From: Phage NC-G
Direction: 5' to 3' (one strand)
DNA: 64,000 nt
Sequence record: MK310184
The position numbers were made by a program, and so were the translations under genes. The notes under the pieces were generated by a model, which had not been told where the DNA came from, did no database searches, and saw only the letters and a list, made by a program, of their open reading frames with translations. Shown here piece after piece: positions 11,080 to 14,149 of the stretch (its first letter is position 1; each line of letters opens with the position of its first letter).

Positions 11080-12459
11080 TCATAGAGCCTCCAAATCTTT
11101 AACATACTCAGTTACAACATCAGTGGTTTTCCAGTATTGATGCTCTTCTTTCTTGGCCTTGGCTTCCAAAGCCAGTTTCTTAGCTTCATCGGACGTGATA
11201 TGGAAAATGTTCATTGCTACGAGTTTATCGGCATATTCACCATAGACTTTATTGCTGGCCAATTCTTCGGTTAAAACCTTACGGGTCTTACCTTGGATAA
11301 CCACTACACCATCAATAACATCTTTAATGAATGTAGCTTTGGCCAATGCCAGTTTGAAAGCTTCTTCGGTTTCGATGATTTTACCATCAATACGTTTTTG
11401 TACAAAGGTCTTACGGACCTCAACGAAATCACGAATCAGTTCAACTACATCTTCGTAAACCTTAAGTTTACCTTTTTCATTAATGACGGTCAGGTTTTGC
11501 GAACGACGTTCGATTAACCCAAAGTCCTTCATGATTTTTTCGTGCTTCTTATTTTCTTCAGTAGGCAATTCGTATTCTTTACGAATCTTAACCTTGAAGC
11601 CGAAACCATTCTCGTCACAGTCGTCATCATACGTGATATACCCTTTGTCTTCTAAAGGGTCCAGAACCTTAGCTACATACGTTTCACGGTCATATTTGTA
11701 CGGGATTTCTGTGATATGCATTTGGGTTCGAGATGTGAATTTATACGTTCCACGAATCTCATAACTACCCGGTTCAATCTCAACCACATCACCACGGAAT
11801 TCCGGATAAGCCACCTTAGGCTTGGTTACGCGTTTTTCTTGAAGAACCTGCAATACAGCTTTCTTAACAGAATCAAAACTATGAGGAAGAATATTAGTTG
11901 CATAACCAGTTGCAATACCGGAAATACCATTAAGAAGAACAGTAGGAATAATAGGCAGATAAAAAGCTGGTGGCTTATGTTCAACATCCGCATGAACCGG
12001 AGCATATTCTGTATCCTTATAAACCTTTGCGAAATTAGTTCCAATACGTGCAAAAATATAACGAGAGGCTGCAGCCTTTTGAACCAAACGAGAACCAAAG
12101 TTACCTTGCCCATCCAACAGTGGGAAGTTGTTGTTCCATGTGTTAGCCATCAAAGCACCTGCTTCCTGAGCAGAGCCTTCACCATGGTGATATCCAAGGT
12201 CGGCTACACCGCCTGCAATAGAAGCTAGTTTGTGGAATTTTTCTTTATTACCACGAGCCATATCAAGACAACGAGCAACTACAAAACGTTGTACAGGTTT
12301 AAAACCGTCAATCATATTTGGAATGGCGCGGTTTTCGACAGTATACATTGCGTAAGCCAGCGCTTCGTTGTCGATAATGCTTTTTAAGTCACGACGAGTA
12401 AAAGCGTCATCGTAAACATCTAAGGATTGTTTAAAAAGGGTATCAATTACATCAGCCAT
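11080..12459 (-). CDS. 52: DNA topoisomerase II medium subunit gp52
   Basis: 459 aa; GyrA-like N-terminus ...AMYTVENRAIPNMIDGFKPVQR...; synteny. Confidence 0.9.
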   Translation of the reverse strand: MADVIDTLFKQSLDVYDDAFTRRDLKSIIDNEALAYAMYTVENRAIPNMIDGFKPVQRFVVARCLDMARGNKEKFHKLASIAGGVADLGYHHGEGSAQEAGALMANTWNNNFPLLDGQGNFGSRLVQKAAASRYIFARIGTNFAKVYKDTEYAPVHADVEHKPPAFYLPIIPTVLLNGISGIATGYATNILPHSFDSVKKAVLQVLQEKRVTKPKVAYPEFRGDVVEIEPGSYEIRGTYKFTSRTQMHITEIPYKYDRETYVAKVLDPLEDKGYITYDDDCDENGFGFKVKIRKEYELPTEENKKHEKIMKDFGLIERRSQNLTVINEKGKLKVYEDVVELIRDFVEVRKTFVQKRIDGKIIETEEAFKLALAKATFIKDVIDGVVVIQGKTRKVLTEELASNKVYGEYADKLVAMNIFHITSDEAKKLALEAKAKKEEHQYWKTTDVVTEYVKDLEAL

Positions 12460-12463
12460 AATT

Positions 12464-12604
12464 TTACCATACTAGTGAATGAATAACCATAATAACATCG
12501 GAAATAAAAAGCACAACTTGGATAAGACCGAATATTACTCCATAATACAGTGCTACAAATAAAGCAGCAAGGGCTACAGAGTAGCCCAAGATTTTCTTAA
12601 TCAT
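12464..12604 (-). CDS. Small hydrophobic membrane peptide, 46 aa (ac-like position)
   Basis: MIKKILGYSVALAALFVALYYGVIFGLIQVV...; start overlaps the stop of the upstream ORF, stop lies 5 nt before the gene 52 start. Confidence 0.5.
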   Translation of the reverse strand: MIKKILGYSVALAALFVALYYGVIFGLIQVVLFISDVIMVIHSLVW

Positions 12605-12758
12605 TTTTAATCATCTTAAGTAAGCCGACAGAAGTAGAAAGCACCCAGCCAATAAACAGAAAACTTAAGAATACCGGACCAGGGGTCCACACACCTAAAA
12701 AGAAGCAAACTGAACAGACTATAGCCATAATAAGTTCAATAAAAACTAGGATAATCAT
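12597..12758 (-). CDS. Small hydrophobic membrane peptide, 53 aa
   Basis: MIILVFIELIMAIVCSVCFFLGVWT...; preceded by GAGGAAAATATG; the track ORF 12597..12830 is a 5' over-extension. Confidence 0.5.
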   Translation of the reverse strand: MIILVFIELIMAIVCSVCFFLGVWTPGPVFLSFLFIGWVLSTSVGLLKMIKND

Positions 12759-12768
12759 ATTTTCCTCA

Positions 12769-12876
12769 TTAGCGTCCGAAGACGCCTTTAGTTTTAAGAT
12801 TGATACGATAGAACTGCATCGCATGTTCATTATGGAAATTACTCCGTAATACAGTAGCCCAAGATTTCTTAATCAT
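12769..12876 (-). CDS. Stp-like peptide, second copy, with 11-aa N-terminal extension (35 aa)
   Basis: [35 protein letters not shown]; the Stp-homologous part lacks its own ATG and is in frame with an ATG resembling the start of the 46-aa peptide gene. Confidence 0.5.
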
Positions 12877-13022
12877 TTTTTGGTAAAGGCCTGTAGAATC
12901 AGAACAAATGCCAATATGAATTGTGGAATGGCCTGAGAAATGACCGAAGTTTCACCTGTTGTAATAGTCCAAATACCTAGATAAGTCCAAATACCCGCAG
13001 CAAAACCTTGTAAAATATTCAT
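12873..13022 (-). CDS. Small hydrophobic membrane peptide, 49 aa
   Basis: [23 protein letters not shown]...; GAGGAAAATATG ribosome-binding site; translationally coupled to flanking genes. Confidence 0.5.
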
Positions 13023-13029
13023 ATTTTCC

Positions 13030-13110
13030 TCAAGGGCGTCCGAAGACGCCAGTTAATTTCAGATTATGACGGTGCCATTGCATCACATGTTCATTATAGA
13101 AATTACTCAT
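13030..13110 (-). CDS. stp: Stp peptide (suppressor of three-prime phosphatase; anti-restriction peptide that triggers PrrC)
   Basis: 26 aa [26 protein letters not shown] versus T4 Stp [26 protein letters not shown] (from memory); anchored to the ndd stop. Confidence 0.75.
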
Positions 13111-13276
13111 AGATACCACACATTTTGCATAAACGTTCAAAACAAATATAACCACCACATAAACACATCATGACGGCAACTTTATCATTAAAGGGCATAC
13201 CGAAAGCCATAAAGGCTCCGGTAACTACTAATGAAGCTAAAACAAATAGATAACCCATTACAAAGAACGTTCTCAT
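13103..13276 (-). CDS. Small Cys-rich membrane peptide, 57 aa
   Basis: [25 protein letters not shown]...[20 protein letters not shown]; start follows the ndd stop, stop overlaps the stp ATG. Confidence 0.4.
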
Positions 13277-13277
13277 A

Positions 13278-13727
13278 TTAATAACTCTGTAGAACGAATT
13301 TAAAGTTATCAGCCAACATGCGGTTCATTTCTTCCAGGGTCTGAAGGTCGGAACTATGGTTGCGAGTGAAAGCCATTGCAATTTGACCCTTACCAAAACC
13401 TGTAGTCAGTGGTTTCATTTTAGAAGCAGGTACATAAAGAACTTCATACACTACACCGTTCACAGCCATAGTGCGAGCTGATTGAGAACGTTTCTTACGG
13501 ATGTTAGCCACAATACCATCAAGACCTTGAGCTGAACGTTGGTTGCCGACATAAAAGCGAGCGGCTACGACACGAGAATCTGCTTCACCTTTAACAAAGA
13601 AGTAGAAGCCTGGCTGGGCAGCGATTTCTTTAGAAGGCTTACCATTTTGGTATTCGCCATTCTTAACATAAGCAACAGTAGTAGCACCAGCAGACAGAAC
13701 GTCACGGCGAGTCATATAAGTATTCAT
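13278..13727 (-). CDS. ndd: Nucleoid disruption protein Ndd
   Basis: 149 aa; PGFYF...[10 protein letters not shown]...[13 protein letters not shown]...[18 protein letters not shown] matches T4 Ndd (151 aa) from memory. Confidence 0.85.
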
Positions 13728-13776
13728 ATCAATTTCCTCAGTAGATTAATGTTTTGTTATCCAGTCAACGAGAACC

Positions 13777-13805
13777 ATTATAACATGATTCTCGAGGTTG
13801 TAAAC
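13777..13805 (-). promoter_or_regulatory. Early sigma-70 promoter upstream of ndd
   Basis: GTTTAC, 17 nt, TATAAT on the minus strand. Confidence 0.6.
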
Positions 13806-14149
13806 TATTTTTGTAGCTGTTCTAAAATAAATCCGCTCGTATAAAAAGAAGCATTATAAACCTTGTTCAGCGGGTTCAAAGCACGTCCGTAAGTATCACG
13901 TAATTCTTTGATAACGTTTTCATAACTCACGTAGTAAGCACTATGATAACCTGGGTCCATACTCATACGAAATTTAATGAACCGATAAAAGCCTGTTTCC
14001 GGGTCTTGAACGAAAACGAAATCAGCACTCGTCATAATCTTTGAATGTACGCCGGGAATCATACTTTGATTGAATGCCACCGATGCATCCTGAAGGCTGA
14101 GTTGTTTAAAGAACATTACCTTAGCATTACCAAAAAATACTTTAGACAT
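13805..14149 (-). CDS. Hypothetical early protein
   Basis: 114-aa ORF. Confidence 0.5.
   Translation of the reverse strand: MSKVFFGNAKVMFFKQLSLQDASVAFNQSMIPGVHSKIMTSADFVFVQDPETGFYRFIKFRMSMDPGYHSAYYVSYENVIKELRDTYGRALNPLNKVYNASFYTSGFILEQLQK

Follow-up and report, generated by a model that had tools for sequence, protein, structure and literature searches.

Why does a T4-type phage carry two stp sequences in the run of small genes between ndd and gene 52, when T4 carries a single one? Stp is the classic phage anti-restriction factor sensed by the host guard PrrC; it inhibits the type Ic enzymes EcoprrI and EcoR124I and triggers PrrC, by a mechanism that is still unknown according to a 2025 review (PMC12707154). 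The DNA analyzed here, a stretch of 64,000 nucleotides (nt) from Phage NC-G (MK310184; hereafter the window), comes from a T4-type phage of the JS98 group of Dhakavirus, and its closest record is JS98 (97.6% identity over 96% of a 1.4-kb query). A preliminary description had read positions 12464 to 13276 as a tandem duplication of stp, each copy paired with a small hydrophobic peptide gene, and had suggested that two divergent copies could widen the range of restriction systems targeted or help evade PrrC activation. What it said about the sequence itself, namely the gene order, the coordinates of the open reading frames (ORFs) and the presence of two Stp-family sequences, with a small membrane-peptide gene behind each one, holds throughout, and the single stp of T4 is borne out. 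Its term "tandem duplication" is not supported, as the two copies are different alleles (77% identical to each other vs 93-97% to their orthologues) and their partner genes belong to the unrelated families phrog_2501 and phrog_9347. The locus should rather be called a stack of heterologous cassettes with a truncated stp relic. We regard a recombinational origin of this stack as highly probable; the fuller account, in which recombination left the relic and the relic has no Stp function, we favor with moderate confidence. The result is mostly explanatory, and its general interest is modest.

Two alternative cassettes are stacked in one slot

All features described below lie on the minus strand of the window. 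Stp copy 1 (13030..13110) is a complete gene of 26 amino acids (aa), whose last codons, encoding GVFGR, contain a 6-bp hairpin with a UUCG tetraloop (GGCGUC-UUCG-GACGCC, 13035..13050). It is followed by GAGGAAAATATG (13020..13031), the Shine-Dalgarno (SD) sequence and start codon of a 49-aa membrane peptide gene (12873..13022). Next come a remnant of the start region of a second 52.1 gene (52.1', 12844..12876), which opens with AAAAATGATTAAGAAA and ends at the joint of TATTACGG to AGTAAT, and stp copy 2 (12769..12843), which consists of codons 2-25 and a stop codon and has no ATG of its own. Remnant and copy 2 form a 35-aa ORF (12769..12876), with 11 residues from 52.1' and 24 from stp. Copy 2 contains a second hairpin (GGCGUC-UUCG-GACGCU, 12771..12786), with five G-C/A-U-type pairs (12785..12772), an outer G.U pair and the UUCG loop, and leads to a second GAGGAAAATATG (12756..12767), here the SD sequence and start codon of a 53-aa membrane peptide gene (12597..12758). 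The resident 52.1 gene (12464..12604; 46 aa, DUF7396, PF24129 with 77 bits) is the right conserved flank of this variable slot.

Both stp copies score above the curated cut-off (25 bits) of PF08133, "Anticodon nuclease activator", copy 1 with 51.3 bits (E 9e-14) and copy 2 with 61.0 bits (E 7e-17; profile positions 2-25), and both also match phrog_6763. The T4 Stp sequence on which the preliminary description relied was correct. We compared the homologous stp unit across 13 phages. At the nucleotide level, copy 1 shares 93-94% identity with the only stp of UPEC07 and of DCP80, both Gaprivervirus phages, and copy 2 shares 97% with the only stp of JS10 (Dhakavirus) and 91% with that of T4, whereas copy 1 and copy 2 share only 77%. 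Copy 1 is a Gaprivervirus-type allele and copy 2 is a T4/JS10-type allele. Over a 94-nt direct repeat (12751-12844 vs 13015-13108) the two units are 79% identical.

Like the 26-aa Stp of T4, copy 1 is encoded by a free-standing gene. It stands where stp stands in T4, immediately ahead of an Ac-family gene, and has the same hairpin and SD sequence; its ATG is coupled to the preceding stop codon (13110..13030). It differs from T4 Stp by F12W, Y13H, N15H, T19L, K20T and Q26P, which belong to the Gaprivervirus allele, and by a unique H5Y. Copy 2 shares 22 of its 24 residues with T4 residues 2-25, the differences being V9A and N15I, but it is not free-standing: its ATG is replaced by CGG, and its sole start is a 52.1-derived ATG 33 nt upstream, which adds the 11-residue leader. 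The motif MSNFHNEHVMQ, which is invariant in about 25 other stp sequences from two virus families (Straboviridae and Kagunavirus-like siphoviruses; the search pattern left codons 5 and 9 free), is broken in both copies, by H5Y in copy 1 and by V9A and the missing M1 in copy 2. Copy 1 had been called canonical, which is right as to its complete 26 aa but not as to H5Y (CAT>TAT, 13096..13098), which is absent from all 548 phage records with an stp match (best identity 96.2%); H5 is kept in copy 1 of JS98, IME281 and the Logan contigs. Neither the H5Y form of copy 1 nor the exact 35-aa product occurs in a collection of 15 billion proteins. H5Y might conceivably weaken Stp, for example as an escape from PrrC triggering.

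The 49-aa peptide matches phrog_2501 (E 3.9e-20), the same profile as T4 Ac (E 2.2e-25), and is 44-49% identical to annotated Ac proteins. Its gene sits directly after stp behind the hairpin and SD sequence, as Ac does in T4, and the peptide is a divergent relative within the family of T4 Ac (acridine sensitivity). The 53-aa peptide is assigned to phrog_9347, whose genes usually occupy the post-stp slot in Dhakavirus phages, and aligns with the 49-aa peptide at 13% identity. In other phages the slot between stp and 52.1 holds one alternative, Ac in T4 and a phrog_9347 gene in JS10, C6, IME341, dhaeg, UPEC07, DCP80 and Tequatrovirus AugustSocin. Because the two partner peptides come from different families, each of which fills the slot alone elsewhere, two alternative cassettes are stacked one behind the other in the window.

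Two minor observations concern these genes. In AugustSocin, the phrog_9347 peptide (901-1062) is labelled "acridine resistance protein", apparently from its position alone, and ndd is split into two parts. In the window, no stop codon interrupts the frame of the 53-aa gene upstream, across hairpin 2, as far as an ATG within stp copy 2, so that a 77-aa ORF can be read (12597..12830, minus strand); we rejected this ORF as a gene, since the SD sequence GAGGAAAATATG marks the 53-aa start, and this start is conserved in all relatives.

The second copy is joined to a fragment of 52.1

The joint was read by alignment with JS98, IME281 and JS10 and by direct reading. Between the 49-aa gene and copy 2 lies the 5' part of a second 52.1, up to TATTA(T/C)GG, and the first ~23-24 codons of this 52.1 are fused to stp codon 2 (AGTAAT...) at ATGGAGTAAT/ATGAGTAAT. 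At this point 52.1 reads TATTATGGAGTAAT and stp starts with ATGAGTAAT, a likeness that argues for a crossover through about 9 nt of imperfect microhomology, by which the stp ATG was removed. The 5' end of the resident 52.1 (~28 nt) is exactly repeated before copy 2 (12865-12880 = 12593-12608; 12853-12867 = 12580-12594). The earlier observation that copy 2 has lost its ATG and is in frame from a 52.1-like start is supported. These repeats and the family matches of the stp copies are far beyond chance. Over 74 nt, six substitutions and one deletion of 1 nt separate the JS98 remnant from the resident 52.1, a divergence that fits an origin in another phage.

Two stretches are missing from the window remnant, 1 nt in an A-run and 31 nt flanked by ACT triplets. 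The remnant ATG and stp codon 2 are 33 nt apart in the window, which is in frame, vs 64 nt in JS98 and IME281. The joint is out of frame in JS98, IME281, EcWhh-1, UP19, Esco_phi_B-01 and Logan contig ERR11523140, where the remnant ORF is only nine codons long (MIKKSWVTR) and leaves copy 2 without a start; the 31-nt deletion gives the 35-codon ORF of the window. Its ATG overlaps the stop codon of the 49-aa gene as ATGA and keeps the AAAAATGATTAAGAAA context of the real 52.1, and the resident 52.1 likewise starts inside the stop region of its upstream neighbor. Given the ATGA overlap and the native 52.1 start context, translation of the 35-codon ORF by coupling is plausible.

The stacked arrangement is rare

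Among 808 stp places in 798 records, the JS98-type joint is rare; it was found in seven records representing five phages (JS98, IME281, EcWhh-1, UP19 and Esco_phi_B-01), all of them out of frame. These five share with the window the stacked cassettes, the 52.1'/stp joint and 96-98% nucleotide identity, but they have 31 nt more of 52.1', F4S in copy 2 and the normal H5 in copy 1. The second stp copy is annotated in none of the five, and no mention of JS98 together with stp was found in the literature. The 31-nt deletion of the window was not found in phage records, IMG/VR contigs or Joint Genome Institute (JGI) metagenome contigs; exact-pattern scans of IMG/VR for the deletion joint and for a generic 52.1'/stp joint returned JS98 and IME281 only, and those of JGI metagenomes returned none. 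The same deletion is present in two Logan assemblies only (ERR3179013 and ERR3179108), which match the window at about 97.1% identity over 1.7 kb and have no 57-aa gene upstream of stp. Since the in-frame allele is common to these two assemblies, it is not private to one isolate.

Matches to the 49-aa protein at more than 50% identity come only from phages with two stp copies, as do its identical forms. A donor in which a Gaprivervirus-type stp, the 49-aa Ac gene and 52.1 form one cassette was sought among the phages compared and not found.

A proposed recombinational history for the locus

In T4-type phages, the slot between stp and 52.1, within the early run from ndd to gene 52, normally holds one membrane-peptide gene, either of the Ac family or of phrog_9347. 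We propose that, during co-infection by two phages, an illegitimate crossover joined codon ~23 of the donor 52.1 (TATTATGGAGTAAT) to the stp start of the recipient (ATGAGTAAT). The donor side would have contributed the Gaprivervirus-type stp, the hairpin, the SD sequence, the Ac-type 49-aa gene and the 5' end of 52.1, and the recipient side the T4-type stp minus its ATG, the hairpin, the SD sequence, the 53-aa gene, 52.1 and gene 52. The "second stp" would therefore be a 5'-truncated relic, initially out of frame behind a nine-codon stub as in the JS98-type phages. A later deletion of 31 nt between the two ACT triplets set the 52.1' ATG in frame and so created the 35-codon chimeric ORF, a case in which a scar may become a new small ORF by borrowing the coupled start of a neighbor. 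Translation of the chimera is probably coupled and low, and the chimera would not be maintained as Stp; what selection would keep in this segment is the hairpin stem together with the GAGGAAAATATG site, both of use to the 53-aa gene downstream, and the gain under selection would be a second membrane-peptide gene and not a second stp.

The expression signals are indeed preserved. As had been reported, both copies keep the hairpin GGCGTC-TTCG-GACGC(C) (13050..13035 and 12786..12771) followed by GAGGAAAATATG, and in the relic the stem of the UUCG hairpin and the GAGGAAAATATG site are conserved. The hairpins were considered as intrinsic terminators, but they were flagged as such only on the plus strand and no T-run follows on the coding strand; we therefore treat them as putative RNA stability or spacing elements. 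C(UUCG)G hairpins were reportedly described by Tuerk and colleagues in 1988 as unusually stable elements in T4 mRNAs. A search of 12300..13900 against Rfam gave no meaningful match.

A second scar of this kind is found in Gaprivervirus. In TH40, EAWsc9 and one of two versions in DCP80, the order is stp, phrog_9347 gene, scar, Ac-family gene and 52.1, so that, as in the window, stacked phrog_9347 and Ac-family genes are separated by a 52.1'/stp fragment. In the scar, a 52.1' fragment runs into stp at about codon 9-12, and the hairpin and SD sequence follow. It differs from the window in the opposite gene order and in the stp break, which lies near codons 9-12 and not at codon 2, and for these reasons we regard it as a separate event of the same kind. 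Its remnant is a 22-codon ORF in the 52.1' frame, out of frame with stp; the 5' part of the scar shows three substitutions among the three phages, and the hairpin stem and GAGGAAAATATG are kept. This supports the view that the retained part of the second stp may act as an expression signal for the downstream gene and that the gain would be a second membrane peptide. T4-type cassette exchange can thus apparently use short coding microhomologies, here between 52.1 and stp, and leave chimeric scars, which has recurred in two genera. The DCP80 record (PQ671644, 141 kb) holds two ndd-stp-...-52 versions, at ~33.3-34.1 kb and at 136.7-137.8 kb, one with a single cassette and one stacked, which suggests a mixed or chimeric assembly of two Gaprivervirus phages.

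Among described mechanisms, the nearest is modular shuffling by PeSLs (promoter-early stem-loops, each a strong sigma-70-type promoter combined with a stem-loop), known from the hyperplastic regions of T4-type phages (Arbiol et al. 2010, PMC2839356; Comeau et al. 2014, PMC4122927), and swaps of ndd.4/.5 have been described in the same genome neighborhood (PMC4122927). As in that process, small accessory genes are here swapped, added or lost between short conserved sequences with a stem-loop and a Shine-Dalgarno/start element. However, the repeats of the window have no early promoter on the minus strand within 12400..13770, and the exchange points are coding (stp start or interior, 52.1 codon ~23), with 4-9 nt of microhomology and a chimeric scar left behind. 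Because the repeats lack a promoter and the exchange points lie in coding sequence, the locus is not a PeSL.

Is the second copy a working Stp?

According to a review of post-transcriptional control in T4, the N-proximal 18 residues of Stp are almost invariant, loss-of-function mutations cluster at residues 4-14, and removal of eight C-terminal codons lowers activity only moderately (PMC3014915). Relative to the JS10 allele, the relic has acquired F4S in the out-of-frame JS98-type lineage, V9A, N15I and one synonymous change in the window, and T19I, a GGA>TGA stop at codon 24 and one synonymous change in the Logan contigs, where GGA>TGA also turns the hairpin loop UUCG into UUCU. This gives five replacement or nonsense vs two synonymous changes in 24 codons, among genomes 3-4% apart, and the five positions concerned never vary in the other stp sequences read. 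The pattern looks neutral, with counts too small for a statistical test.

The strongest alternative to a nonfunctional relic is an expressed, N-terminally extended Stp paralogue which, together with the H5Y copy 1, would widen the range of type I enzymes or alter PrrC triggering. It would account for the in-frame ORF with its coupled ATGA start, the 61-bit match to PF08133, and the in-frame allele in two other assemblies, in which residues 2-18 are wild type; C-terminal residues are partly dispensable, and a siphovirus contig whose stp may start at an upstream GTG (see below) hints that N-terminal extensions can occur. Nevertheless, the ORF derives from a copy that cannot be translated in the five closest phages, one in three chance deletions would restore the frame, V9A affects an invariant residue within the segment of clustered loss-of-function mutations, the sister allele carries both an early stop codon and an altered hairpin loop, and the 11-residue extension sits directly on the critical N-terminal segment. 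The untranslatable copy in the closest relatives and the replacements gathered by the relic weaken the reading as a working, diversified second Stp, which the preliminary description had suggested, and the in-frame allele in two assemblies speaks for it; on balance we consider it unlikely.

Several points weigh against a relic without Stp function. Lineages that differ from the window by ~3% still have the in-frame allele, and in the Logan form the residues after M1 are wild type through the first 18, the stop removing only the last two, a smaller loss than the moderately harmful eight-codon deletion. The in-frame lineage retains F4, the mutation of which is confined to the out-of-frame lineage, the start context of the chimera is that of the real gene 52.1, N15 is naturally variable (H in copy 1 and in siphovirus Stp), and the substitution counts are small. 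The single-cassette donor was not among the phages found, so that the two-parent scenario follows from the alleles and not from an observed parent. We nevertheless hold absence of Stp function in the chimera to be the somewhat more probable state, and the 35-aa ORF is most likely a new chimeric variant of a known peptide family without that function. The second stp of the JS98 group would then be a by-product of stacking and should not be annotated as an stp gene without evidence.

A further possibility is that both stp sequences are expressed and have been reshaped by Stp-sensing hosts, with H5Y and the leader-extended V9A/N15I copy as escape or specificity variants, which we judge improbable. 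If true, one variant could, for example, still block a type I enzyme but leave PrrC untriggered, or the chimera could dampen PrrC activation by competition, and the 31-nt deletion would be an adaptive "resurrection" of the relic through the start signal of a neighboring gene. Whatever their activity, the natural variants H5Y, V9A/N15I, F4S, the leader fusion and the two-residue truncation offer a panel for structure-function work on Stp.

Alternative origins of the repeat

If an stp-plus-peptide unit had been duplicated in place, in tandem, in a single genome and the two units had then diverged, this would explain the head-to-tail layout with its period of about 264-273 nt and the repetition of hairpin and SD sequence. 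However, each stp copy is far closer to the orthologues of other phages (93-97%) than to its neighbor (77%), the peptide genes fall into different PHROG families with 13% identity, and the flanking DNA is 92-97% identical among these phages, which leaves no time for such divergence; we thus consider this origin very improbable. A collapsed or mixed assembly of two phages, as the DCP80 record with its two ndd-52 versions might suggest, has a negligible probability here, since the same stacking and joint occur in five phages sequenced independently and in three Logan assemblies, in unbroken sequence with ndd and gene 52.

Stp sequences in other phages

Stp-family peptides (MSNFHNEHVMQFYR(N/H)..., 92% identical to T4 Stp) also occur in siphoviruses of ~42-50 kb, namely Ro145clw and IMG/VR contigs. 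In vB_EcoS-Ro145clw (Kagunavirus) the stp sequence lies in an unannotated gap after the endolysin gene (1501-1575 of the extracted locus), and tblastn gave matches to the N-terminal 18-19 residues of Stp in many Salmonella, Citrobacter and Enterobacter siphoviruses. The siphovirus copies have no UUCG hairpin, and GVFG is kept at the protein level. In one siphovirus contig (7640-7760), the stp ATG is replaced (...KEYPSSNFHNEH...), and translation in frame could begin only at a GTG that lies six codons upstream and is preceded by AAGGG. The sequence is either a natural Stp with an N-terminal extension or one more dead copy.

The Stp of phage T2 (MH751506) has a different C-terminus (...NLKNFGILGFKK) and no UUCG hairpin, and its "ac" is annotated as a 13-codon fragment. 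The altered C-terminus and the "ac" fragment indicate that the stp/ac junction of T2 is also rearranged. In UPEC07, stp is annotated (878-1036) as a 52-aa ORF that starts from an upstream ATG inside the 57-aa gene.

Genes and signals around the slot

Upstream of copy 1 lies a gene for a 57-aa hydrophobic, Cys-rich peptide (13103..13276; phrog_5941). Its overlap with the stp start, already noted in the preliminary description, amounts to 8 nt between its stop codon and the stp ATG (ATGAGTAA). The gene is present in JS98, C6, IME341, dhaeg, UPEC07 and TH40 and absent from JS10, IME281, T4 and DCP80, and with or without it the stp ATG overlaps the stop codon of the preceding gene (ATGAGTAA or TAATG). 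Cys38, 45, 50 and 53 are conserved across the Dhakavirus and Gaprivervirus homologues, and several relatives carry the gene with the annotation hypothetical. The 57-aa gene is real; it is an optional insertion/deletion cassette between ndd and stp and not peculiar to this phage.

To the left, the variable run of small genes is bounded by the conserved ndd (13278..13727), which encodes the 149-aa nucleoid disruption protein (PF06591). Upstream of ndd is a sigma-70-type site resembling an early promoter (13777..13804), TTTACA-16-TATAAT with TG and 11/12 matches. It is the sole such site, with none on the minus strand between 13770 and 12400, and is likely the early promoter for the entire run from ndd to 52.

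On the other side, gene 52 (11080..12459) encodes the 459-aa medium subunit of topoisomerase II. Comparison at 12440..12459 of the window showed that its start differs among relatives, with 442 aa in JS98 vs 459 aa (MADVIDTLF...) in the window, IME281 and JS10, and this difference marks a further recombination boundary at the edge of the variable region.

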